Shown here one piece after another: positions 29,044 to 58,963 of a stretch of DNA of 64,000 bases (within the stretch, counting starts at the first letter, position 1; the number at the start of each line of letters is the position of its first letter). The notes below the pieces were generated by a model. The model ran no database searches. It had not been told where the DNA came from and was given only the letters and a program-made list of their open reading frames with translations. Position numbers and translations under genes: made by a program. The stretch is taken from assembly GCF_055900595.2 (NCBI RefSeq), contig NZ_CM148325.1; one strand, written 5' to 3'.

Positions 29044-32000
29044 ATGTCGGTATGTCTGAAACCAGGGAAAATCATTATGCTTCTGGGCATGTTGGCAGCT
29101 TTTATGCTGTCTGACTTTGCACGGGCAGGGGCGGAATGGCAGACATATCCTGATTCTACAGGCGAGTTTAACGGAACCGTTCCTTTTGCCGACAGCGCCA
29201 GCGTACCCGTCTATCAGGGCAGTGTTCAGCTTAATCCTGCTGAATCTCATGATGTCGGGTTTTCTGCTAAACCGAATGAATTTAGCGTTGACGATGACGC
29301 TGCTAACCTGATTGTCGCTAATCCTCAGGACAATGAAGGCGACCAGTTTTCCACACCACCTGCGCTGCGCTGGGAAAATCAAACACCCCCTACCGTCAGC
29401 CTGGTGTGGGCCGATGCCGCCACGCCCGATGTGCCCCTTAACCCACAACCTATTGCTAACCGTAGCTTTTGCGCTCAGGGGCTGGCCGGACGCTCGCTGG
29501 TGGCCTGGCCGCAGATTGATGCGCAGCAAACCCTCCCACTGCTCTACCTGTTGACCTCGACCGGCTATCCCTATGCGGGGACGGTGGCGCTGGTGGACCA
29601 GAAAGTGACCCTGAACATCGCGCCCGCGCAGGGCGATTTAATCTCGGTGAGCGCCAGCGGTTATAACGAAACGATCGCGGCGGCAAAAACCACCGTTGGC
29701 GACACCATCACGCTCACCGTCACCACTAAAGATTGTCAGGGCAACGTCGCGGGTAATATTCCGTTTATTATCAAACGTAAAGATGCTGAAAATCGCCAGG
29801 GGGCAGTGAATAATAGTGCGCCAGTGGTACTGGATAGCACCGAGTTAACGACGACGGCTACCGAATACCATGGCACCTCTGATGCCAACGGCACGGCCAC
29901 CATCACGGTGAGCCAACCGAACGGCCCTGGCGTCAAAACGCCACTGGTGGTCAGCATTTCCGGCATTGCGCAAACCAGCGAAACCGCGGTGATTTTTACG
30001 GTGCTCACCAGCCCGGACGCGGCGCAGGCTACGATGTGGGGCCATATGGCGGAAACGGTAGAAGCGCACGGTTACACCTTCAGTCGACCAAAGCTGGCGG
30101 CAGAAGTCAGCAATGAAAGCGCCACGGTCGTCGATCACAACGAAACCTGGTCCACCTTCACCTGGAGCGGCGCAGATAACCACTGCACCGTGCTGCCCGG
30201 CATGCGCCACTTCGGCGCGCTGGCGACCGTTATCCCCACATCGGTGCAGACAGTCCTTGGCTGGCCGATGCAGGGGGATTATTACTGGTCATCGCTGGCG
30301 GGCACCACCGGGCAGCACCATGCGGCGGATGTCTCTAACCGTGGTGAAACGCAAAAGCCGGATAGCACCCCGTTTCTTGTAAGCTGCGTGGATAAACCCG
30401 CGCCTGATGTCGAGCCGAAAATCGTCCTTACGCCCGAAAACTATGATGATACGGCACAGGCGATGAAATCGCAGGTGGGCGAAGACGCCACGATGCGTCT
30501 GACGATCACCGACAATAAAAATAACGATCAACCACTGGCGTATTACTACTTCTCGCTGCATCTGGATGACGGCGTTAACCGCAAAAATCAAACCGATTCC
30601 GCCTGGGAAGCCCATCCGGTGCAGATTACTGGTGGTTCGAATTTGCAACAGGTTGATGCTCACACCTATGAAGGCATGACCGATGTCAACGGTCAGGCTT
30701 CGCTAACCCTGAGTCAGCCCGACGGCGCAGGCGTGAAAACCCATATCACGGCGAAAATGCGCAGCAATTTTACGGCTACAGATGCCAAAGACGTGATTTT
30801 TACTGTGATCACCAGCCCGGACAGCGACAAGGCGCGGATGTGGGGCCATATGCGCGGCATTGTTGTATCTGGCAGTCTGTTCAAACGCCCAGTGCTGGCG
30901 GATGAAACTGAGCATGAACTGGGATCGGTGCGGGAAAATAACGAAGACTGGGCGCTGTTCGATCAAGACACCAGTATGCAGGCTGAATGCGGCGTCGGCC
31001 ATACGCCAAGTCAGAGTGGGCTGGAAAGCCTTTTTTCAGCCCATCCCGGTAACGCGATTGGCACTGAGTATGGCTGGCCCACCGCACAACAGAACTACCT
31101 AAGCGCGGTGGAGCAAGCCACGCATTCATCGGTGAATTTGGCGAACGGAAACGTCGACAGCTACCCCGGCTTTAAGCGAAATTACCTCTCCTGTTCGGGC
31201 AATGAGATGGTCGCGAAGGTTGAAGTGAGCACCGATCACGATGTCACCCCTGGCACCAAAGCGCAGGCCAAAGTGGGAGACACCGTCGTGATGACCGTGC
31301 GTACGGTTAACGCGCTCAATAATACCCCCGTTCCCTTTACTGCCTTCACCATCACTAAAGGCATGGGGTATAACCGAGCGGGGCTGGTGAGCGGGTTTGA
31401 TGACCCGAGCAGCGGCGCAATCTCGATGAATGGCACGCAATACGGCACATCTCAGCCGTCGATGGTCTACACAGGTACGACAGATGCACAAGGCGTGGCA
31501 ACGGTCGAAATAGAGCAACCCCAGGGGGTGGGGTTAAGAACCGTGCTGAGCATTACGCCGGTCAATTCCCATCTACCAAATGCCATTAATTACAATGTTA
31601 TTTTTACCACCCCAACCAGCCCGGATGTTAGTGGGGCGCAGATGTGGGGCCATATGGATGAAACGATTACCGTTGATTCATTAACCTTTACCCGGCCTAA
31701 GCTGGCAGCAGAAATCACCAGTCCGGATGGCACATTAACGGAAAAAAACGAAGTCTGGGCGCGCGTTAGCCAGGCCAGTACGGCCATTACCAGTAAAGGC
31801 GGTTGCGGAACCAATATGCTGCCGCGCCGCTCCCAGCTCAGTGCGCTCTATGACGCTAATAACGGTAATGCGGTGCAAGCCACACACGGCTGGCCGACGC
31901 AGCGTCAGCCCTACTGGAGCAGTTCCCCCGCGGATTTAACGCCGCACAATTACACCATTGCCCTGGATAACGGCGCACAGGCCATCGGCGGCGATACGCC

Positions 32001-35000
32001 GGTTTACGTCAGTTGCCTGACGACGGCGAACAAACCTGCCAGCAGCATTACGCTGGATGTGGTTGATAACGCACAGTGGGCTGCCGGAAATAACGCGGCG
32101 AAGCTGAAAAAAGGCGAAACGCTACAGGTTAAGGTAACGGTAAAAGATGCGCAGGGTAATCCGCTCACGGATATGCCATTTAAACTGAGTCGCGGAGACG
32201 GTTATACCCGCACGGGCGAAAAACATATTGCCGGTAGTGGCGATGCGCTGGTGGCACCGGTGGTGATTAACAGTGGGCTGGCGGATGAAACGACGTTGAA
32301 CGACACCGCGGGATTTTATACTGCCATGACCGGCAGCGACGGCAGCAAAATCCTCAATATTACCCGCCCGGATACTCACGGTACCAAAACGGCGCTGACG
32401 GCGACGTTGTATTCCGATCCAACAAAAAAAGACAGCCTGGATACAATCTTTACTGTGGTCACCAGCCCGGATAGTAGCAAAGCGAAAATGTGGGGCCATA
32501 TGCCGGAAACCTTAACGGCGGCAGATGGTACCGTTTTTAAACGCCCATTGCTGATAAAGGAACTGTCGAGTCAGACCGGGCGAACAGCAATATTCGAAGA
32601 CAATGAAAACTGGGCGCTGTTTACTCAAACCCAGGCGAACTCAACCAGTAACGGCTGCGGCACTAGCTATGTTCCCACTCAGGCAGGGTTGTTGTCGTTG
32701 TTTGATAATCACGCTGGCAATACCATCAAAACCGTCCAGGGCTGGCCGGTAGTAACGCGTTATTTATCCAGCACGCCCGACAACACTGGCATGGAACAGC
32801 GTAACTACAAAGCGGTGGATCTCGGCAATGGCACCAGTGCCATGGTGTCAACGTCGACACTGGATCTACTGACCTGCCAAACCACGCCAGTCACCACGGT
32901 GAGCCAGATTCTGCTGGAAGCGGCAGATCCTGCGGCTCTGATTTATGTTGACGATACACTGAGTGTGGTTAAAGCCAAAAAAGGCGAAGAGTCGGTAGTG
33001 CGCGTCACCACGAAAGATGCGCAAGGTAACCCGGTTGGCAATGCGGCGTTTATTCTGAAACGTGCCACCAGCATAAACCGGAGGTATACATCAGCGACAG
33101 CGAGTGTAGGTGCGCTGACTGTAACCGATGCCTGGGGAAATACGCGGAGTAATTTTCAGGCAACAACTGAAATGATCTATGGCGTGACGGGGGCTGACGG
33201 GTCGACAACCTTTACGCTGAAACAGGATAACAGTACCGGGTTAAGAACCGATCTCACGGCATCACTGGATGGCGTCAGCAGCGTTCAGGCGACCCTCCCG
33301 ATGGTCTTTACCGTGGTAACCAGTCCAGATTCTCCTAAAGCGAATTTTTGGGGACACATGCCTGAAACGGTAACGGCCGCTGATGGCATGACGTATAAGC
33401 GACCATTACTGTTTAAAGAACTTACCAATAACTATGCACGCTATAGCACTTTTGAGAATGGTGAAGATTGGGCAAGATTCAGTGTGGTTCAGTCAAATAA
33501 CACCGATATGGATGGATGCGGTGCAGAGTATATGCCGACACTGGATGGCCTGCAGTCCTTGTACAGTGCCAATAGTGGTAATGCGATGAGTACAGTGCAG
33601 GGATGGCCGGTAGCTAATAGTTATCTCACCAATACACCGAGTGATACGCAACCCAGTAACCGTTATTACAATGTGGTGCAACTGAATTCCGGCGCGGTTT
33701 CTCAAATCGTGACCACCGTGCTGGCATTACAAACTTGTCGCACAACGCCTGCGGTTATTGCCAGCCAGGTGTCTCTGGAGCCTGCGGACGCCACGCAATT
33801 CGTTAAGGTTGACGATACTCTGAGCGCCATTAAGGTGAAAAAAGGCGATGAGGTTGTTATTCGCGTCACGACCAAAGATGCGCAAGGAAACCCGGTGGGT
33901 AATACGCCGTTTACACTGAAGCGTAGCAGTTCTTTCAATCGCCAGAATGCATTAGTGACGATGCAGACGGTTTCGGTGACACCCGCAGCGGCCAGTACAG
34001 TTGATACCAATGCATCGGCCACCGTGTATGGCGTGACCGGGCCAGACGGAACCACCACGATGACACTCCGACAGGATGCGTCTACTGGACTCAAAACCGA
34101 CTTTTATGCTCTGTTGAACGATACCGGCGTGTCGTCGAACACCTTGCCAGTGATCTTCACCGTCGTCACCAGCCCGGATACACCGCTGGCGGCCAACTGG
34201 GGGCATATGGCGGAAACCTTTACCAGCAGCAAGGGCGTCACCTTCAAACGGCCTTTCCTCAAAGCTGAACTTTCTGGTGGTACGGCGGTAACGACCAATA
34301 ATGAAGTCTGGTCGCGCCTGACAGCAACGGAGAAAACGGATGCCAGCAAGGCGGGTTGTGATGAGAGTTATCAACCGCTGATGACTGACATGCAGGGGTT
34401 GTATGCGGATTACCCTAACAACCAGTTGGGCACGGTGCTCGGCTTGCCGACTTCCGCCGGGTATATGTGGGCCTACGACATGATGACGGTTTCTGGCAGC
34501 AGCTGGAGCAACCAGGCATATTCGCTCGTTAATGGTCAGACAGTTCAGGCATCGTCCAGTTATACGGCGGTAGTGATGTGCCTGGTGGAACCGCATACCG
34601 TTCCGGCGATGATAGAGATCACTTCAACAGCACAGGATGCGGCAAAAACGGTCAGCAATGGTGGTCGACCGAGCGCCGTAGCGAAGAAAGGTGAGACGAT
34701 TCCGCTGACGGTGACCGTACGTGATAGCACCGGGAATCCGGTACCCTACGCCGACTTTACCCTCACGCGTGGAACGACGCTGGATCGCTCGAAAGCAACC
34801 GTTAACTCGAGTGCGGACGATCTTACCGTGAAGTCATTGATACCCGCGAACAGCGACGCTGGGCTGACGGCAAATGGGGCAAAAGTGCTCAGAACAACGG
34901 GCAGTGATGGCACTGCCACCTTTGAAGTGAGCCAGAATGCCACGACAGGTCTGGCGACACCGATAACCGTCACGCTGGCGCGCGATACAACCAAAACCGC

Positions 35001-37131
35001 CACGCTGGATGTTATCTACACGGTGATAACCAGCCCGGACTCACCGAGCGCGAAATTCTGGGGACACATGCCGGACACCTTTACCAGTTCGGCAGGCGTC
35101 ACCTTCAGACGACCGCTCCTGAAAGCCGAAGCGACTTCAGGGTCATCGATTAGCACTAACGGTAATGGTGAAGTGTGGTCGTATATGAGCAACGTTCAAA
35201 ATTTAACATCGACAGATTGTCCGCTGGAGAATCAACCGCGCAGTAATGAATTGTTGGATTTGTATAATGATCATCCCAACGGCGCGATAATGACTGACCT
35301 GGGGCTGCCGATATATGCAGGCAAGTGGTGGGCTTATGATATGGTCATGCCGGATTTATATACGTGGCAGTATCAGACTGTCAGCCTGAGCGCAGGAGAT
35401 ATCGCGAAGAGCTCGGCAAACAACGCGCTGATGCTTTGCCTGGCGAAGCCGCATCCGGCAGGCGTCAGCGTAATGTTGACGTCATCCGCAATGGATAACG
35501 CCAGAACCCTCAGTAATGGCGGGCGACCCAGCGCGTCAGTGAAAAAAGGTAACCCACTGCCAATTGTGGTGACGGTCAAAGATCGTGATGGCAACCCGCT
35601 GGCGGGAGAGGCCGTGACGCTCAGGCGTGGTTCAGCGATGAGTCGTTCAGGAGCAGGAGTGGGCACGCCGGCAAATGCAATGACGTTGACAGAATTGACA
35701 CCTGTGTCGGCGGAGTTTTCTCTGGCCGCACACGATACGCAATGGCAAGGTTTCACCGGTAGTGATGGTACGGCCACTTTCAATGTTGAACAGCCTGAGA
35801 CCATCGGCCTGGCTATCTCGTTCACCGCTATACTGGCGCGAGATGTCGCAACTACCAGCGTCATTGATGCGATCTTTACCGTCGTCACCAGCCCGGATTC
35901 CGCAATGGCGACCTACTGGGGCCATATGCCGGATACGGTAACGGCGGAAAACGGCGTGGTCTTTGAACGGCCTAAATTGTTGAAAGAGCTGCCGTCGAGC
36001 GCCGGAGTCAGTCAGGTGACGGATAACAATGAAGTGTGGCCGTTGTTTAAGGCAACGCAAAGGGAAGATAGCAGCCTCAGTCCTTGTGAAGCGGCACGTC
36101 GGCCATTGAGCGATGATTTATTATCGCTCTACGCGCGCTATCCGGGGAACACGCTGACGACTCAAATCGGCTGGTCTACGAAGTATGCATGGTGGGCACT
36201 GGATAACAAGCAGGGGAATGCCCTGGTTGTCAGTCTGAATAATGGTTTTGAGTCGTCGACGGCGAGTACGGGGTATCAGGGATGTCTGGTCAATCCCCGC
36301 GCGACCGTCTCCAGCGTCACGCTGACATCGACGGCGATAGATGCCACTACGCAGGCGGCGAAGGTAAAAAAAGGTGAAGCCGCGCCCGTCGTTGTTACCG
36401 TAAAAGACAGCGCCGGGAAGCCGGTACCTAATGTCGCTTTCACCTTAAAACGTGGTGATGCCGTGCCGCGTAACAGCGGGGCGACGTTGTATGGTGATGT
36501 TGCGGCGATGGATGATATGACGGTACAACCTGCCAGCGGGACGGTGGTAACGCTGGCTGACAGTGGGAATACGATCGACGGTGTGACAGGGGCGGACGGT
36601 ACGGCAAGTTTTGCCGTTCGTCAGGATAATACGCCAGGATATAAAACGCCGTTGACGGTGACGCTGACGGATAACGCCACAATAACGGCGACGCTGGATA
36701 CGATTTTCACCGTGCCGACCAGCCCGAATGTCGCCACGGCGTATTTCTGGGGGCATATGGCGGATACCGCCACCGTAAGTGGCAAGACGTTACATCGCCC
36801 GCTATTGAAATCAGAGTTGCCGTCAGGGGCTACAGCGGCAGTAGCGCCAACGGTGAATAATGAAATCTGGGCGCTGGCACATGTGATCGATGCTCAAAAA
36901 TGGGATATTGCAAAGCAGTGCGGTGACTTTAGTAGAGCACCGAGCTATACCGATTTACAGTCATTGCATAGCGGTTTTAGCGCGCTGGGATGGCCATCAT
37001 CGATAAGCTTCCCCTATTTCTCTACCGATCGGGCCGGTTCGTTCTATTGTGGTATGGATGAAGGGGCGGGGACACAAAACTGCGGTATTCAGGCATCCAG
37101 TACCGCAGGGTTTGCGACTTGTTTCCAGTAG
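29044..37131 (+). CDS. ratA: giant repetitive secreted/surface protein (RatA-like)
   Basis: 2695-aa ORF with N-terminal signal peptide; nine tandem ~270-aa units each carrying FTV(V/L)TSPD..(M/F)WGHM motifs. Confidence 0.8.
29650..37100 (+). repeat. nine in-frame tandem coding repeats (~0.81-0.86 kb period) within the ratA-like gene
   Basis: WGHM signature recurs near nt 30033, 30838, 31642, 32490, 33347, 34197, 35058, 35917 and 36757. Confidence 0.8.
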
Positions 37132-43248: not shown

Positions 43249-43503
43249 CTATGCGGGGATCTTGGTACCAGAGCGCTTTGGGACTTTGGCCAGATTTTTC
43301 TGTACCGCGTTATCAATATGGTGATGGTTATTTTCCTGCCGTGCTTTGAGCCAGCGTTCCACTTCCTCTTTGTCCCACGCGACGGCGCGCTTCGTTAGCG
43401 CAAAACGTTTGGGAAACAGGCCTTTTTGCTCCAACGCATAAATCGTACTTTCAGAGAGTGGCACCATCTGTAAAAGCACGTTTTTTCTAATGGCAATTTT
43501 CAT
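43249..43503 (-). CDS. AlpA/Vis-family phage transcriptional regulator (excisionase-like)
   Basis: 84-aa ORF resembling AlpA (..LSESTIYALEQKGLFPKRFALTKRAVAWDKEEVERWL..); adjacent to and divergent from int. Confidence 0.75.
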   Translation of the reverse strand: MKIAIRKNVLLQMVPLSESTIYALEQKGLFPKRFALTKRAVAWDKEEVERWLKARQENNHHHIDNAVQKNLAKVPKRSGTKIPA

Positions 43504-44314
43504 TGTTTATTCCTTTAATCCAAAGGCACTCAGTTCTGATAACAGATCCTTTTTTACCAGCAGCGGCAGATTGCTTTGTCTCTTTACGCCAGCCGGTTAG
43601 CAAATCGTTATACATTTCGGTGTCGTAGCCGCTGATAACCACGCTTCCTTGTAACCGGGTGACGGTCTCCAGTAAGCGCAGGTGGGCACCATCGTCCATT
43701 TCGTGGCGATAATATTTGTTAGTCAGATTACGGGTGCTATGAACATACGGCGGATCGACAAAATGCAGCGTGTCGGCGGCGTCATGATCCAGAATACACT
43801 GGATGGCATCGCGGTTTTCCACCAGAACCCCTTCAAAACGCTGACCAACGGCGGCCAGATTATCGGGCATACGGCTCCAGATGTGTTGGGCCGTTCCACT
43901 GGCGCGTTTAGTGTCCAGCCGAAAGCCGGTAGTGCCTTTAGTTGCCCCGGCAGAACCGAAGCCCATCGTGGCGCGAATCACTAAACGCCTTGCCTGTTCA
44001 ACAGAATTTTTCCCATAGCGATAGGCCGAAATAAACTCGGTGCGGGAATAGGGTGTCAGGCTGCAGGCTTCAACCAGTCTTTCGCGCAGTTGTGGGGTAC
44101 GAAGAACGGCGAACAGGTTAACGACGTCGCCATCCAGATCGTTGTAAACCTCGGCGTAGCTACGTGGTTTTCTGAGCAGTACGCTGGCTGCACCGCCGAA
44201 GGGTTCCACATAGCATCTGTGGGCCGGAAAGTGGCTAATGATCCACGGAGCTAGTCGCCACTTGCCGCCGTGGTAGCGGATTGCAGGGTGCTTAATCATC
44301 CAGTTTTTCTCCAC
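43487..44314 (-). CDS. Dam-family DNA N6-adenine methyltransferase (paralog 1)
   Basis: 275-aa ORF with N-terminal YHGGK..RCYVEPFGGAAS AdoMet motif and catalytic DPPY motif. Confidence 0.8.
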   Translation of the reverse strand: MEKNWMIKHPAIRYHGGKWRLAPWIISHFPAHRCYVEPFGGAASVLLRKPRSYAEVYNDLDGDVVNLFAVLRTPQLRERLVEACSLTPYSRTEFISAYRYGKNSVEQARRLVIRATMGFGSAGATKGTTGFRLDTKRASGTAQHIWSRMPDNLAAVGQRFEGVLVENRDAIQCILDHDAADTLHFVDPPYVHSTRNLTNKYYRHEMDDGAHLRLLETVTRLQGSVVISGYDTEMYNDLLTGWRKETKQSAAAGKKGSVIRTECLWIKGINNENCH

Positions 44315-47647: not shown

Positions 47648-47896
47648 TTACGCGATTTTCTGCTTTTGCAGAAATTGCCCGCGTGTGGATAGCGGTATGT
47701 GTATCTTAGGATTCGGGCAACCGCTGGGTACTACCGTTCCCATCACGGTCTCCATCGCGATAAATGAAAACGAACAGTTAACGTTCTTGCACTGGTAATA
47801 GAGCTTACGTACCAGCGGTGACATATATTCGCTGCTGCGAATTATCGCCTTACCGTCGCAGTGTGGGCATTTCATCATGTCCGATCTCCTTACCAC
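47648..47896 (-). CDS. ogr: Ogr/Delta-family zinc-finger late-gene transcriptional activator
   Basis: 82-aa ORF (likely start MKCPHCDG at 47875) with CPHC..22 aa..CKNVNC zinc-finger spacing typical of P2 Ogr / P4 Delta. Confidence 0.8.
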   Translation of the reverse strand: MVRRSDMMKCPHCDGKAIIRSSEYMSPLVRKLYYQCKNVNCSFSFIAMETVMGTVVPSGCPNPKIHIPLSTRGQFLQKQKIA

Positions 47897-48201
47897 TTTT
47901 AACTAACTGAAACACTAACGCTTTTCGTTAACGGACTGACGAAATAGTGTGATGCCGTTCAAAAAAATGATTCTTGCCATGCTGGACATCGAACGGTTCT
48001 GCTCCAGCGCTAATGCTTACAGTTCCGCGATTTCAGCGGGGAGCAGACGCATTGCCACCGGTTTGTTCGACATCACCCCGCGGGGTGCTCGTGAGCGTAA
48101 GACGTTCTCATTTGTTTTCATGGTGGTATATTGTGGTTATTAACATTACACAATCTATAATTCCCTCAATTGAGTGAATTGTCAATGGTAATTATATCCA
48201 A

Positions 48202-48540
48202 ATGAAAGAATTTGGCATCCGTTTGAAGGAAGAACGTATCCGACTTGGCCTTGATCAAGACGGCTTTGGACAACTTGGGGGCGTGAAGAAAAACGCACAA
48301 AGTAACTATGAGAATGGACTGCGCAAGCCGGACAGTGACTATCTTGCTGGCATAGCGGCAGCGGGAGTTGATGTTCTGTATGTTCTAACAGGCAACCGCA
48401 CGCCTGTGGCTACGTTGTCCAGTAAAGAGAGTGTGTTGGTGGAGAACTATCGTTCTGCTACGCCAGAACACCAGTCCACCCTTGACACGGTTAGCGCTGC
48501 GCTTGCGCAACCGGGAGTAGGGAAAGCAGCTAAGGGATAA
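48202..48540 (+). CDS. XRE-family helix-turn-helix transcriptional regulator (Cro/CI-like)
   Basis: 112-aa ORF with classic HTH_XRE N-terminus (FGIRLKEERIRLGLDQDGFGQLGGVKKNAQSNYENGLRKPDSDYLAGIA); divergent from ogr. Confidence 0.8.
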   Translation: MKEFGIRLKEERIRLGLDQDGFGQLGGVKKNAQSNYENGLRKPDSDYLAGIAAAGVDVLYVLTGNRTPVATLSSKESVLVENYRSATPEHQSTLDTVSAALAQPGVGKAAKG

Positions 48541-48580
48541 CGAGTAGAATGAATTTGGTTATTGTCTGTATGGAGGCAAA

Positions 48581-49153
48581 ATGAAGTTGAATAATCTGGT
48601 TGCTCTTTACAGGAACATGACAGAGCAAAAATTGGATAGGGTTAAATTCCCATACAGACACAATAATTTACATTTTGATGTATTTTTCTTTATTGATGGA
48701 AAACCGTTTGAGCTTCTTTTCGGAGCATTAGGCGCTAATCTTTGCTTTCGTCTAAAAGTCGAGAAGGGATTCGTCATAAATCCTAATCTGGGAAGTGAGA
48801 CTTATAAAGAATTATGCAAGGCGCTAGGTTTGAAATATGACCCTGCCAATCCATTTAGAACAAGTAAGTTTTTTGAAGATTTTGATGGGAAAATCCCTAC
48901 ATCGGTTACTGTTAAGAATAAGGCAAAATATACTGATATTGCTGTGCATGTCAGGGATGTTGAAGAAGCAGACAGAATATATTTCTGTGGATGGAAAAAC
49001 AACAATGAAGAAAAGAGTCATGTTACTGAAGATAATTTAAAGAAAACGAAAGAGTTTTTAGGGTATCAGGCTTTTCTTGTTTGTAAGGAAAAGAATATTA
49101 GCAGTAGATGGACTGATTTAGAAAATAAAGCAAAAGATTTTTATTTACCATAG
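48581..49153 (+). CDS. hypothetical protein (cargo gene 1, no recognisable domain)
   Basis: 190-aa ORF with strong SD GGAGG; A+T-rich, Lys/Asn-rich; first gene of compact operon. Confidence 0.6.
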   Translation: MKLNNLVALYRNMTEQKLDRVKFPYRHNNLHFDVFFFIDGKPFELLFGALGANLCFRLKVEKGFVINPNLGSETYKELCKALGLKYDPANPFRTSKFFEDFDGKIPTSVTVKNKAKYTDIAVHVRDVEEADRIYFCGWKNNNEEKSHVTEDNLKKTKEFLGYQAFLVCKEKNISSRWTDLENKAKDFYLP

Positions 49154-49167
49154 GATTGTGAGGTTAT

Positions 49168-50316
49168 ATGTCTGATATTTCATTAGGGTGCGTGGTTGTT
49201 CATAGGTTGATAAAAGAGCAACATAAAGATTTCGATCACTCAAAACCATATAGTCGCCGTGATACGGTTCTTGACCGAAATAATGAAATCGTAATTAAAC
49301 TAGTGTCCAGTATAGCCGCATTGTATGGTAAAAAATCTAATAGCTCGCATTATGGTATATTTAATTTAGATGAAACACGCAGGGGGCCTTTTCCAGCGGA
49401 ATTTGATAAATATCGGAATGATACATCCAAGAAGTTAGACGATGAATTGTTTATAGGATTATCAAAAAATGTTATGCATCAGTTATATATTGAGGCAAAG
49501 GATCGACCTGCTGCATCAGGAGGATTACTTCTTTTTGCTGATTATATCAGTAAATCCGTGCGTTACTTTCTTATTGCAATGATTAAGCAAAAGGAAGGTA
49601 TAGTTATTAGTGATAAATTAGAGCCAAAGGAGTTAGAGCATCTTGATCTGGCAAAACTAAACCAGGCGGCACGAATAAACTATGATTTGTATGATAAATA
49701 TATTTCCGCTGATGAGAATGAAAGACAGGATGTTAATTATTTAAGTTTTGTTAGTCCCAGTTCTAACCAGACAACTTCAGGGTATTTCATTACTGCCTTA
49801 GGTTGTGATAAAGGTAATACATCAACTAAAGCTACGAGTAATTTAATTAATGAATCTTTTAACTTCTTCAGAAATCATCAAGAATTAAAGGATAATGCCC
49901 GTAAATTTAAAAATGAAATTATTGAGTATTTATTCGATTGTTCTGAAAATAACATTTCAGCTAAGCTCTCTGTTGTTAGTGAGATGGCGGCGAAGCATAT
50001 GGTTAATTTAGAAGATGACATTAAAGATAAATTGTCAGAAGAATTATATGCTCATTTGAATAGTGAAAGTATTCGTGTGCCTGTGGAATTTAGGGTAAGC
50101 AAATCAGTAGTTAAGAAAAACAGAAATATTAAATATACAAGTGATAATGTTAATTTTGAGTTTAAATCTAGTTTACTAGGCAATACTCTTGATAATGAGA
50201 TATGCTATAATAAGAAAACTGGACATTTAACTTTTACTCGGATTACTCCTGAGAAAAAAAGTGAAATAGCTCAATTGCTTGATGAGTTAATAAAAGAAAG
50301 AAATAGCGAAAAATAA
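49168..50316 (+). CDS. NdpA/YejK-like nucleoid-associated protein homolog (cargo gene 2)
   Basis: 382-aa ORF, SD GTGAGG; collinear similarity to E. coli YejK recalled from memory (VVVHRLIKEQH vs IALHQLIKRDE; GGLLLFADY..VRYFLIAMI vs GGxVLFCHY..VEYLLVAVL). Confidence 0.55.
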   Translation: MSDISLGCVVVHRLIKEQHKDFDHSKPYSRRDTVLDRNNEIVIKLVSSIAALYGKKSNSSHYGIFNLDETRRGPFPAEFDKYRNDTSKKLDDELFIGLSKNVMHQLYIEAKDRPAASGGLLLFADYISKSVRYFLIAMIKQKEGIVISDKLEPKELEHLDLAKLNQAARINYDLYDKYISADENERQDVNYLSFVSPSSNQTTSGYFITALGCDKGNTSTKATSNLINESFNFFRNHQELKDNARKFKNEIIEYLFDCSENNISAKLSVVSEMAAKHMVNLEDDIKDKLSEELYAHLNSESIRVPVEFRVSKSVVKKNRNIKYTSDNVNFEFKSSLLGNTLDNEICYNKKTGHLTFTRITPEKKSEIAQLLDELIKERNSEK

Positions 50317-50318
50317 GG

Positions 50319-50957
50319 TTGCTTAATATGTCATGTTTTGAAACGGTTGTTGAGCTTTTCAGATATGTAGGGCGTCCTAAATTTGATGCTATTAATAATC
50401 GTTTTTCAGCAACTATTTCTTATGATGCTCATATATATGAACTCTTAGTTTCTTTGCAACCTCATACAGCGTGGGGAGAAATTGAAGAGATTGTCATTGA
50501 TGATGTGGATATAGATGTTGATGATAGCCTTCCCGCTAAAGGAACATCAATAACACTGACAATCTCTATATCAACTGGAGCTAGTGAGTCATTTTTTATC
50601 GATATTAAAGATCTAATTCAAAAGTCTCCGATGTTAAATAGAGGTATTTTAAGAAAGTCTTTTTACTTGGTTGAGGAAGATTTTTATTTTAATGAAGGAA
50701 TGGTTGAGGGATTAGCAAAAATACCAGAACTATCTGTTTTAAAGAATCTTTGTGATTTTATTTTATGTCTATCAAAAGTTGCACACTACAGCAATAGTAA
50801 AAGTGATGATGTATGCCATAAGTTAGTTTTCTTGAAAAATACTAATGCTAAGTCATTACCTTTAATTATTGAAACTAATGTTGATTATTCACTTCTTTTA
50901 ACAGGTATTAAGGATTTAAAAATCATCGAATCTTTTTCTGATGAAAAAAAGCTATAA
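50319..50957 (+). CDS. hypothetical protein (cargo gene 3)
   Basis: 212-aa ORF beginning 2 bp after the preceding stop; acidic, no recognisable domain. Confidence 0.55.
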   Translation: MLNMSCFETVVELFRYVGRPKFDAINNRFSATISYDAHIYELLVSLQPHTAWGEIEEIVIDDVDIDVDDSLPAKGTSITLTISISTGASESFFIDIKDLIQKSPMLNRGILRKSFYLVEEDFYFNEGMVEGLAKIPELSVLKNLCDFILCLSKVAHYSNSKSDDVCHKLVFLKNTNAKSLPLIIETNVDYSLLLTGIKDLKIIESFSDEKKL

Positions 50958-51001
50958 CGGATGATAATTATTTTGAGCGAAAAGGGATTTTCATTAATAC
51001 G

Positions 51002-51583
51002 GTGGTCGATTTTCTTGAATCAATCGATGTAAAGAAACAGTTTCATTTTTTATTCTGTGAGTGGGATGAATTTCTAAAACTATACCATAATAACCTCGGT
51101 GTATATCTTAGTGGTTTTTCATTTCATAAAGTAAGAAAGGAAGTGGCAGAGGCAGAAGCTAATTTAGCTGAGCGTTTTTCAAAAATAATGTCAGACATGA
51201 TAGCTAAGCTTTTAGGTATTCCTGTTTCTTTGGTTGCTACTTTTGGCATGATAAAATTAAATACCCTGCCGGAAATGTTAGTGGTTTTTTTAGGTGTATT
51301 GCTCACGTCGATAATTATGTTTTTTATTGTAAGAAGTCAATACACACAGTTTAGGATGATTTGTGATGCTAAAGATATTATATTTTCCCCATTAGTGAAA
51401 AAATCTGTAGGTTATACAGAAGATTTGAAAAAATTAGTATGCAATGCAAAGGATAATTTAGACAAAAATCAGGTCATGTTAAATCGTTACCTTCTTTTCT
51501 TTCAATGCTTATGCTGGATTCCGACAGCCTTAGGTGGTGGAATGATCTTAATGGCTATTATGGTTCATTTAGGATTACTATAA
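51002..51583 (+). CDS. predicted membrane protein (cargo gene 4)
   Basis: 193-aa ORF with apparent GTG start; hydrophobic segments (IPVSLVATFGMIKL.., MLVVFLGVLLTSIIMFFIV, ..CWIPTALGGGMILMAIMVHLGLL); 3' end overlaps convergent gene D by 6 bp; start codon uncertain. Confidence 0.45.
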   Translation: MVDFLESIDVKKQFHFLFCEWDEFLKLYHNNLGVYLSGFSFHKVRKEVAEAEANLAERFSKIMSDMIAKLLGIPVSLVATFGMIKLNTLPEMLVVFLGVLLTSIIMFFIVRSQYTQFRMICDAKDIIFSPLVKKSVGYTEDLKKLVCNAKDNLDKNQVMLNRYLLFFQCLCWIPTALGGGMILMAIMVHLGLL

Positions 51584-52678
51584 ACTTAATTCCATTTCTA
51601 ATGCGGTGACATAACCAGTACCGCCATCCAACGTATGCACGCACCGCGTAATCACCCACGCGGTGCCATCAATTTCCGCCTTAAACCCCTTCACCTGCAG
51701 CGGTAATTCCGGGAACAAATCGGGCCGTCCACGCGCAAGATTCAGGCTGAACGTTGCCGCGCCGCGCTGTAGCTGCTCCCACGCGCTTTTTGCCGCTCTG
51801 TAGGCGTTATTTTTGTTGGCATAGGTGTGGCGCAGCACCTTGATATTTCCCTCTTCGCCAACCATCACGTTATCAGCATTGAATGAGGCGTCTGACGGCG
51901 GAGATTCTGTTGGTTGCGTTTGTGGACGGTTTTTCCGTGTCTTGCGCTTCATGTCAGTGGACTGCTTTTTTGCCTGCCGTGTATCCAGCCAGTAGGCCGT
52001 CACACCGGTATACGCCTCCCTGTCCGCGATGCTGAACCGGTGGCTGTCGCCGTCCTCGCGGGTAATGGTTGCGACCGGCAGCGGTTTGCCGCTGGCACTT
52101 TTACCGGAACCTGTCGGCATTAGCAGCAGAGCATCATTTTTCACGCAGGCGATAGCGCCGTGCAGTTGCGCCAGCCGGGTCAGGAAGGAGGCATCGGATT
52201 CGTTAGTCTGGTCAACGTGCTCAATGGCGATCCCAGCCAGCTCGCCGCTGACGGTTGATTCCAGCTTATGACGCGCCGCCACGGTTTGCACAATCGCGCC
52301 CAGCGTCGCATCATGGTAGCTCTGTTCCCGTTTAACGTTCAGCGAATCGCGGAAATCGGCGCTGCGGGCGCGGAGGCTGAGTACGTCCGGTGCGCCGCTG
52401 TGCTCCAGTTCGTCCACTGTGAAGACATTCTGGTGCATCACGCCGTCACCCTTCCAGCCTAGAGAAACCGTTAGCTTTTCGCCCTTTGCCGGAAACGCCA
52501 GCAGGCCGTCGCTGTCGTCCAGTTCGAGCTGCAGTTCGTCGGCCTCAAAGCCCCGGTTGTCGGTGATACGCAGGCTGATTAAGCGGTTGTCCAGATTCCG
52601 CGTAATGTCCTTACCGTTCAGCACCACGCTGTACTCCGGCTGCGGCTGGGCGTTTAAGAGTGCGTTTAACATCGTCAT
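51578..52678 (-). CDS. P2 gpD-like tail protein (late control D)
   Basis: 366-aa ORF, MTMLNALLNAQPQPEYSVVLNGKDITRNLDNRLISLRITDN.. typical of gpD; position after U. Confidence 0.85.
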   Translation of the reverse strand: MTMLNALLNAQPQPEYSVVLNGKDITRNLDNRLISLRITDNRGFEADELQLELDDSDGLLAFPAKGEKLTVSLGWKGDGVMHQNVFTVDELEHSGAPDVLSLRARSADFRDSLNVKREQSYHDATLGAIVQTVAARHKLESTVSGELAGIAIEHVDQTNESDASFLTRLAQLHGAIACVKNDALLLMPTGSGKSASGKPLPVATITREDGDSHRFSIADREAYTGVTAYWLDTRQAKKQSTDMKRKTRKNRPQTQPTESPPSDASFNADNVMVGEEGNIKVLRHTYANKNNAYRAAKSAWEQLQRGAATFSLNLARGRPDLFPELPLQVKGFKAEIDGTAWVITRCVHTLDGGTGYVTALEMELSL

Positions 52679-58204: not shown

Positions 58205-58963
58205 TTAATTCAGGATAATCAGTTCTGATGTGGTGCTGGCTGGCTTTCCACCTACGGTATAGCGAATCCCTACCGTTGAGAATGTCAGGCCGTGGAAGAT
58301 ATCGCGCATTTCCGGGATGTCGTTAACCGAGATAATCATCCGGCCCTGCATGGTGCGCGCCAGCTCTGCCATACGCTGGTACTGCTCAAGGCCAAATGGT
58401 ACGCCGTAGCCTTCGGTTTTCCAGTATGGTGGGTCGCAGTAGAACAGGGTATGCGGGCGGTCATAGCGGCGAATACAGTCGGCCCAGTCCAGATTTTCAA
58501 TGCAGACGCGCGCCAGCCGCAGATGGGCGGCGGATAAATCCTCTTCCATACGCAGCAGGTTCAGGCGCGGCGGTGAGGTGGTGGCGGTACCGAACGTGCG
58601 ACTTTCCACTTTGCCGCCGAATGCCAGCTTTTGCAGATAGTAGAAGCGCGCCGCGCGCTGGATATCGGTCAGCGTTTCTTCCGGGGTGATCTGGAGCCAG
58701 CGGTACATTTCGCGGCTGACCAGCGACCATTTAAACTGGCGGACAAACTCTTCTAAATGGTGCTGAAGTACGCGGTAGAGGTTGGTAACGTCACCGTTGA
58801 TATCGTTCAGCACCTCGGCCTGTGCGGGCTGTTTCATAAAGAACAACGCTGCCGCCCCGCAGAACGGTTCAACGTAGCAGCGGTGTTTGGGAAACAGTGG
58901 CAGAATGTGTTTTGCCAGCCTGCGCTTACCGCCGATCCACGGAATAACGGGTAACGTATTCAA
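58205..58963 (-). CDS. Dam-family DNA N6-adenine methyltransferase (paralog 2), moron between G and FI
   Basis: 252-aa ORF with IGGK..RCYVEPFCGAAA and DPPY motifs; start overlaps upstream stop (ATGA). Confidence 0.8.
   Translation of the reverse strand: MNTLPVIPWIGGKRRLAKHILPLFPKHRCYVEPFCGAAALFFMKQPAQAEVLNDINGDVTNLYRVLQHHLEEFVRQFKWSLVSREMYRWLQITPEETLTDIQRAARFYYLQKLAFGGKVESRTFGTATTSPPRLNLLRMEEDLSAAHLRLARVCIENLDWADCIRRYDRPHTLFYCDPPYWKTEGYGVPFGLEQYQRMAELARTMQGRMIISVNDIPEMRDIFHGLTFSTVGIRYTVGGKPASTTSELIILN

Follow-up and report, generated by a model that had tools for sequence, protein, structure and literature searches.

The DNA analysed here is a 64,000-nucleotide stretch of contig NZ_CM148325.1 (assembly GCF_055900595.2), referred to below as the window. 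It contains a P2-like prophage in which five plus-strand open reading frames (ORFs) lie between ogr, the gene of a late activator, and the tail gene D, both of them on the minus strand (Table 1). The first of the five encodes an XRE-type regulator and the second a member of the DUF6037/RloE family of 190 amino acids (aa). They are followed by the gene of a 382-aa NA37/YejK-like protein and by two ORFs, of 212 and 193 codons, which alignment with intact alleles identifies as the halves of one gene, called the effector gene below. By profile comparison, the NA37 gene and the effector gene constitute a distant homologue of DS-1, a validated anti-phage system, and the most likely role of the cargo to which they belong is defence. 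The ORF coordinates, the strand, and the position between ogr and D given in the initial annotation of this DNA were all borne out.

The flanks of the block were verified by PHROG and NCBIfam profiles and by the RefSeq annotation of the corresponding prophage in Escherichia coli GMF054, which place ogr to the left of the block and late control D, gpU, and the tape measure gene to its right. The ogr product is identical in GMF054, where RefSeq names it 'Ogr/Delta-like zinc finger protein'. The marked A+T-richness first noticed by eye is evident in the G+C profile, which runs at 0.27-0.35 over 48600-51600 against 0.55-0.62 in the flanking tail genes, while the early genes lie at about 0.5-0.6. 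All the cargo proteins have homologues elsewhere, which marks them as products of real genes rather than of chance ORFs. A megablast search with the region gave zero matches among 50,697 phage records. No family of PADLOC-DB v2 (2023) was matched by the NA37, 212-aa, or 193-aa proteins, and the DUF6037 protein obtained only a chance-level DruD hit (E=0.031). This library is older than the description of DS-1 and PANGU. The PADLOC run recommended in the initial annotation, made on all five proteins, thus yielded nothing useful, and it was the accompanying profile searches (Pfam and NCBIfam) that returned matches to NA37, DUF6037, and DS1_1/DS1_2.

Table 1. Features of the cargo block and its borders (window coordinates).
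Feature	Position	Strand	Remarks
ogr/delta-like zinc-finger late activator	47648-47896	-	NCBIfam PRK09678 E=1.2e-14; PHROG 603; part of leftward early operon
Arc-like small regulator	47915-48073	-	heads leftward early operon (Cro/Cox-like position)
Divergent control region, Arc-like/XRE	48074-48201		128 bp; probable immunity switch
XRE gene	48202-48540	+	112 aa
Swapped low-G+C cargo segment	48514-51609		bounded by homology breakpoints against prophages with other cargo
DUF6037/RloE-family gene	48581-49153	+	190 aa; independent single-gene module, candidate defence gene
NA37/YejK-like gene	49168-50316	+	382 aa; predicted DNA-bound sensor (PagA-like/DS-1A-like)
212-aa ORF (5' effector fragment)	50319-50957 from TTG; 50328-50957 from conserved ATG	+	PagB-like/DS-1B-like
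A7 homopolymer, -1 frameshift site	50944-50950	+	A8 in intact alleles
193-aa ORF (3' effector part)	51002-51583 from GTG	+	helical and transmembrane domain
Gene D (tail/late control D)	51578-52678	-	right backbone border of slot; PHROG 52 E=3.5e-156; RefSeq 'phage late control D family protein'

The last gene of the block is the one whose reading changed most. Where the window has the 212-aa and 193-aa ORFs, GMF054 has a single coding sequence of 418 aa in a region that is 99.3% identical, and the sole length difference in the DNA alignment is a run of seven A residues in place of eight. The two ORFs are, on this alignment, the halves of one gene split by an A8-to-A7 deletion. The 418-aa gene is intact not only in GMF054 but also in Salmonella houtenae and Morganella. 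PHROG 5023, a profile of 412 positions, spans the halves in order, with the 5' fragment covering positions 9-198 and the 3' part 224-397. An exhaustive profile search found 994 representatives of the family, and nearly all of the best 150 are single polypeptides of about 400-430 aa that match from end to end. In the 50,697 phage records, tblastn of the effector gave just five hits, weak or distant.

The frameshift creates a premature TAA that ends the 5' fragment, which is 209 aa long from the conserved ATG or 212 aa from the TTG. This ATG, and not the TTG, is the conserved start (MSCFET...) shared with the N-termini of intact homologues, and therefore the gap after the NA37 gene is 11 nt, instead of the 2 nt initially reported; the other tight gap, of 14 nt between the co-oriented DUF6037 and NA37 genes, was correct. 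On the 3' side the frame changes from 50951, and the mechanically called ORF begins only at GTG 51002. In the intact gene this GTG encodes an internal Val, and no usable Shine-Dalgarno (SD) sequence precedes it, the nearest candidate being an AAGGG 15 nt upstream. Residues 210-224 are missing from both pieces. Good SD sequences had been attributed to all four ORFs; this holds for the 190-aa gene (GGAGG) and the NA37 gene (GAGG), is moderately true of the third, and fails for the 193-aa ORF. The effector stop overlaps that of gene D by 6 nt in a convergent arrangement.

The lesion is not confined to this genome. Among the members listed for each allele, the split products are found on 355 and 377 public contigs, against 178 for the commonest intact E. 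coli allele, 42 for the intact Morganella allele, and 10 for that of S. houtenae. The exact split products recur, and the frameshift is not a read error in the window. Further truncating alleles exist in E. coli, one in which a T6-to-T5 change leaves 249 aa and another split into 294 and 128 aa. A conserved phase-variation switch at the A run was considered and rejected, given that the Morganella orthologue has GAAAAGAGAGC at this site and no A tract.

A structure model of the intact effector (predicted local distance difference test score 93.4) shows an alpha/beta domain over residues 1-212, which is acidic (isoelectric point 4.76, net charge -12), and long helices at 246-295, 314-362, 365-395, and 398-417, with hydrophobic segments at about 291-340 and 389-418. 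The break falls in the helix formed by residues 206-211, at the boundary between the alpha/beta and helical domains. Located exactly where the putative sensor-binding domain meets the membrane domain, the deletion would uncouple sensing from killing, and judged from its sequence the window copy of the NA37-effector module is most likely non-functional. This allele would represent a natural loss-of-function variant that separates the two domains of the effector.

Other members of the family have been broken as well. The NA37 gene is split in Serratia (L003:6866-7999) and in one Morganella (L008:6843-7942), and at least two more E. coli effector alleles are truncated (proteins P0005, P0056, and P0059). 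A recent survey found defence pseudogenes to be rare in P2/P4 elements and, set against that rarity, the repeated breakage of NAP (nucleoid-associated protein)-effector genes raises the possibility that this family is unusually costly.

The 382-aa protein was called NdpA/YejK-like in the initial annotation, and it is indeed a full-length NA37 protein (Pfam PF04245, E=6e-45, model positions 1-322 of 325) that also matches PHROG 3767, 'nucleoid associated protein' (E=4e-63). The combination of genes had been considered unlike any described system; it is, however, homologous to DS-1 and has the architecture of Type II PANGU. The two genes of DS-1 were cloned in the DefensePredictor study, where they protected E. 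coli against phage (PMC13092281). The first encodes WP_000355468.1, an NA37 protein of 391 aa, and the second, which begins 2 nt after it, WP_000150292.1, of 404 aa; the NCBIfam models of the system are NF053868 and NF053869. The equivalog cut-offs of NCBIfam release 20 are 330 bits for DS1_1, 315 for DS1_2, and 341 for the housekeeping YejK model (NF001557). Against these values, the NA37 protein scores 80.8 bits with DS1_1_antiphage ('nucleoid-associated anti-phage protein') and 108.1 bits with YejK, failing the equivalog test of the latter too, and the 193-aa ORF scores 48.5 bits (E=6.8e-13) with DS1_2_antiphage. With both DS-1 scores below their cut-offs, the pair does not classify as a DS-1 equivalog. 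In the reverse direction, DS-1B matches a profile built from 85 sequences of the 418-aa family (hmmsearch; positions 68-406 of 410, E=1.4e-31), and the NA37 protein shares 26% identity with DS-1A over 214 aligned residues. DS-1 and the window pair therefore have in common both protein families, the gene order, and the tight spacing. In contrast, DS-1A carries an N-terminal zinc-ribbon-like CxxC...CxxC extension that is absent from the NA37 protein of the window.

The second comparison is with the PANGU class, in which a YejK-like NAP sits on the nucleoid until phage nucleases such as T4 EndoII degrade the host DNA; the freed NAP activates an effector by binding it (Li et al., bioRxiv 10.64898/2026.04.06.716658). 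The effector of Type I is a GRel toxSAS, while Type II combines the NAP sensor Pag2A with Pag2B, in which an acidic N-domain that mimics DNA is joined to a C-terminal transmembrane domain. Pag2A is reported to bind this acidic domain with a dissociation constant (KD) of 19 nM and to leave the nucleoid on T4 infection, and protection by Type II is reported to need both genes (10.64898/2026.04.06.716658). The window pair is similarly made up of a YejK/NA37-like gene and a close, co-directional gene of about 400 codons encoding an acidic N-domain and C-terminal transmembrane helices. Like Type II PANGU, it resides on a mobile element among defence genes, and it would be expected to work by abortive infection after NAP release. 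The operon definition of Type II (co-directional genes less than 40 bp apart) agrees with an NA37 stop at 50316 and an effector start at 50328 or at 50319. The single-polypeptide effector of Type II is replaced in the window by the two fragments, and the architecture of the intact pair, as found in GMF054, fits the type. Unlike the published system, the pair of the window is preceded in a longer operon by the gene of a probable phage repressor and by DUF6037, and its effector is frameshifted. It is therefore a new, divergent member of a kind of system described in 2025-2026, and no new kind of system.

A counterpart of Type I PANGU, formed by an NA37 gene and a RelA/SpoT-domain gene, is found in precisely this slot of E. 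coli L725 and CEC15, with flanks 96-98% identical to those of the window. This pair differs in its effector and also in its NA37 protein, so divergent that tblastn gave no match to the window NA37 at E<1e-3. Type I-like and Type II-like versions are thus seen to swap at identical breakpoints in near-identical prophages.

The DUF6037 gene belongs to a module of its own. Its product is a full-length member of the family (Pfam PF19503, E=2e-31, model positions 1-192 of 200), whose neighbours in AlphaFold DB include the 200-aa RloE of Campylobacter jejuni (Q8G8T1); no solved structural neighbour was found. RloE stands for restriction-linked ORF E, and although the 190-aa protein is of the same family, here it is prophage cargo and not an insert in an hsd locus. 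One paper applies rloE to RloC-type tRNases, but AlphaFold DB shows the C. jejuni RloE to be a DUF6037 member; the label 'Rloe protein' was discarded as a clue to function.

Genomic contexts separate the two modules from both sides. DUF6037 homologues with 42-52% identity are found as lone opposite-strand genes in three other prophage types, including those of Ralstonia and Yersinia ruckeri. Conversely, NA37 and effector genes occur as a pair without DUF6037 at five other loci, among them a lambdoid prophage (L005), where they lie between the Q antiterminator and the holin, a Serratia P4-like island (L003), the one with the split NA37 gene, and L006. All three genes co-occur in E. coli, in S. 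houtenae and, as a remnant, in Morganella, where a 444-bp deletion has left DUF6037 with 38 codons and XRE is degraded as well, but the NA37 and 418-aa genes are intact, at 94% DNA identity. In Edwardsiella anguillarum (L097:6074-10413), the same backbone and slot hold a larger composite cargo in the order XRE, a BRCT-like 167-aa gene, DUF6037, a ThsB-type TIR gene, a caspase-like Peptidase_C14 gene, a 351-aa gene, and an ASCH gene, followed by gene D. This DUF6037 is more than 90% identical to the copy of the window and is all that the two cargoes share. The cargo thus combines two stacked modules that do not depend on each other, the single DUF6037 gene and the NA37 pair, and DUF6037 as an integral component of a PANGU system was rejected on these contexts. 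The "four-gene operon" of the initial annotation becomes three genes, the last of them frameshifted.

One of the Morganella morganii loci (L007:4577-17257) carries the NA37 and 418-aa pair with remnants of XRE and DUF6037, adjoining an integrase, insertion sequences, and BREX-type genes (PglZ, an N6_N4 methylase, and an SNF2-related gene), and resembles prophage-derived cargo stranded in a chromosomal defence island.

The cargo segment has sharp borders. Against L002 and L018, two prophages with other cargo, homology of the backbone breaks off at 48513 and 48524, respectively, and starts again at 51610 in each; the Morganella island is homologous up to this same point. The right breakpoint lies within gene D, 32 bp from its 3' end, with the result that the last ~10 codons of D belong to each cargo. 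On the left, the homology runs through the XRE gene, which for this reason belongs to the phage backbone. When IMG/VR was scanned with the XRE protein, the order ogr(-)/XRE(+)/variable stretch/gpD(-) was recovered in 52 viral contigs, in which the stretch measures 0.96-6.8 kb and is always below the flanks in G+C. The 139 cargo ORFs in these slots fall into 81 protein clusters, most of which are without a PADLOC match. Recognisable systems include a CBASS cyclase with a four-transmembrane (4TM) effector (L017), PDC-S20 (L065), and PARIS AriA/AriB (L089), all in more distant relatives than L018, where a WYL gene with TIR and caspase genes occupies the slot of a prophage whose ogr and gpD are 100% and 97% identical to those of the window. 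Among loci L017-L096, several sets recur without a PADLOC match: 258+299 aa (7 and 5 loci), 229+421 aa (4 loci), and 380+274+279 aa (2 loci). These comparisons of the D/ogr junction support the earlier suggestion of defence cargo in a variable prophage slot, and with it the reading of the block as horizontally swapped accessory cargo.

This slot resembles the old/tin hotspot of P2, located between gpA and gpQ (Rousset et al. 2022, PMC9122126), a locus of 1-5 kb, in that both are small, show high turnover between two conserved phage genes, and contain anti-phage systems. Nevertheless, the slot of the window extends from the repressor to gene D, in a P2-like subgroup with a primase replacing gpA, and its identification with the gpA-gpQ hotspot was rejected on this position, between the XRE/ogr region and gene D. 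The repressor-to-gene-D position is unnamed in Rousset et al. 2022 (PMC9122126). The available part of a 2026 survey reports further hotspots, some "within the late genes", and does not name this slot among them. With its many uncharacterised gene sets, the hotspot is flagged as a source of candidates for testing.

The XRE gene had been taken for the regulator of the cargo. This role was rejected, because the gene stays when the cargo changes (in L002, L018, L097, and the 52 IMG/VR contigs it is kept alongside different genes) and faces the early operon. Its product matches PHROG 8, 4, and 2328, all of them repressor or regulator families, as well as an RstR-family repressor of NCBIfam (E=1.4e-5), and the whole GMF054 prophage offers no other repressor candidate that faces the early operon. 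The Burkholderia P2-like phages KS5 and KL3 have at this position a gene annotated as a repressor, and a single accessory gene lies between it and D (PMC3091744). The XRE gene is thus conserved backbone and most likely encodes the repressor of the prophage.

The leftward operon that it faces runs from the Arc-like gene through ogr and the primase to further genes. The intact Arc-like gene of GMF054 matches PHROG 3431, 'Arc-like repressor' (E=4e-19), but in the window it has a nonsense mutation, E19*, caused by a single C-to-A substitution at 48019 on the plus strand. In GMF054 and L725 its reading frame is unbroken, and S. houtenae has the wild-type base at this position. In the divergent region between the Arc-like and XRE genes, consensus matches give two promoter-like sites on the minus strand, at 48185-48157 (TTGACA/17/AATTAT) and at 48218-48191, the latter extending into the XRE start, and to one on the plus strand at 48105-48132, with a TG element. 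The region also contains an imperfect 40-bp palindrome at 48150-48189 and is nearly invariant among the E. coli and S. houtenae copies. From these matches, the 128 bp form a probable immunity switch. A prophage with E19* may be unable to switch to lytic growth, and two inactivating lesions in a 3-kb stretch suggest that it is decaying or locked in.

The location of the cargo recalls the immunity region of lambda, where rexAB lie just downstream of the repressor gene and are transcribed from the cI promoter in the lysogen. In both cases, genes for defence or exclusion directly follow a gene that encodes (in lambda) or probably encodes (here) the immunity repressor; they lie on the strand that is transcribed in the lysogen, and the lytic genes lie on the other. 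The proteins, however, are unrelated, and in the window the repressor function and the co-transcription are deduced from the arrangement of the genes.

Taking these data together, the block is interpreted, with a probability of roughly 0.78, as defence cargo in which a DS-1/Type II PANGU-like pair is stacked with DUF6037 behind the probable repressor of the prophage, the effector being broken in this copy. Gene content, homology, the frameshift, the variability of the slot, and the independence of the modules come from the sequences compared, while the sensing and activation steps are taken from the published relatives. It is proposed that the cargo, directly downstream of the probable repressor gene, would be transcribed in the lysogen, and that the NA37/YejK-like protein would coat the DNA of the chromosome. 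Degradation of the host genome by an invading phage would release this protein, which would then bind the acidic, putatively DNA-mimicking N-domain of its membrane-anchored partner. Binding would turn on the helical transmembrane domain of the partner, and the infected cell would stop supporting phage growth (abortive infection). The locus would in this way place a divergent, naturally prophage-borne member of the DS-1/PANGU family in a defined setting, just downstream of a probable prophage repressor.

Several points weigh against this interpretation. The similarity to DS-1 is remote, as seen in the 26% identity of the NA37 proteins and in NCBIfam scores far under the equivalog cut-offs, and the pair is likened to Pag2A/Pag2B by description and not by sequence. 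DNA mimicry by the N-domain is suggested by its charge alone. The XRE protein is probably the immunity repressor, a role assigned from position, as is the presumed read-through of the cargo from the XRE promoter in the lysogen. Finally, among the members listed, the frameshifted allele is present on more contigs than the intact E. coli allele, an excess that could mean either that the allele is tolerated since it still works or that one lineage has been heavily sampled.

The first of these two explanations leads to an alternative in which the split is functional, either because the 209-aa acidic protein and the 193-aa membrane protein are both made as a three-protein version of the system, or because slippage on A7 restores some full-length protein. 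Besides the 355-377 contigs as opposed to 178 for the intact allele, this is favoured by a break exactly at the domain boundary and by frames that stay open in both halves. It is nonetheless unlikely: a separate second product would have to start without a usable SD sequence, at a GTG inside the old frame, residues 210-224 would be lost from both pieces, nearly all of the best 150 of the 994 representatives are fused and full-length, and the independent truncations to 249 aa and to 294+128 aa look like decay. The Arc-like gene of the same prophage also has a nonsense mutation, and on that account loss of function is favoured over a new two-piece design.

The remaining alternatives concern the partners of the NA37 gene and its purpose. 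The 14-nt gap and shared orientation of the DUF6037 and NA37 genes, and the fact that the three genes travel together in E. coli, S. houtenae, and, as a remnant, Morganella, would be compatible with one obligate three-component system, a new PANGU subtype with DUF6037 as its regulator, antitoxin, or second sensor. Such a system is quite improbable in view of the five loci with the pair but without DUF6037, the Morganella deletion that removes DUF6037 and spares both partners, the homologues standing alone in three other prophage types, and the Edwardsiella copy, paired with unrelated TIR-caspase cargo; moreover, two genes suffice in the published relatives. It would be more surprising still if the NA37 protein were a phage nucleoid protein for the prophage's own use, in silencing, chromosome organisation, or host takeover, and its membrane partner served superinfection exclusion or lysis timing. 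The label of PHROG 3767 does say merely 'nucleoid associated protein', and the housekeeping YejK model scores slightly above that of DS-1 (108 vs 80.8 bits). Even so, this reading is very unlikely, given that the cassette is exchanged for bona fide defence systems in the same slot, the pair also stands beside BREX genes in the Morganella island, and the partner is homologous to a validated anti-phage protein. In addition, the cassette is not conserved among P2-like phages, which argues against a core phage role.

Within the interpretation as stacked defence cargo, DUF6037/RloE, intact in the window copy, may act by itself as an anti-phage or exclusion gene of a kind not validated before; it would be a free module joining interchangeable systems (NAP-effector or TIR-caspase) in a repressor-driven operon, with the repressor-to-gene-D slot as a largely unmined reservoir. 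This proposal is tentative, its chances being somewhat short of even, and DUF6037/RloE is flagged as a candidate for testing.

Some further features were observed in the prophage and its surroundings. A Dam-type methyltransferase gene lies in the early region (43487-44314, minus strand), and an ORF at 58205-58963 on the same strand adjoins the tail sheath gene, at a position annotated as DNA adenine methylase in the GMF054 copy. In the GMF054 prophage (L100), the late region also includes a gene for a Doc-family toxin, and two DUF262 genes follow the portal gene, where P2 has its classical hotspot. Outside the phage genes, the window encodes a 2,695-aa RatA-like repeat adhesin (29044-37131, plus strand; NCBIfam PRK15316, 5420 bits), a host gene unrelated to the cargo.

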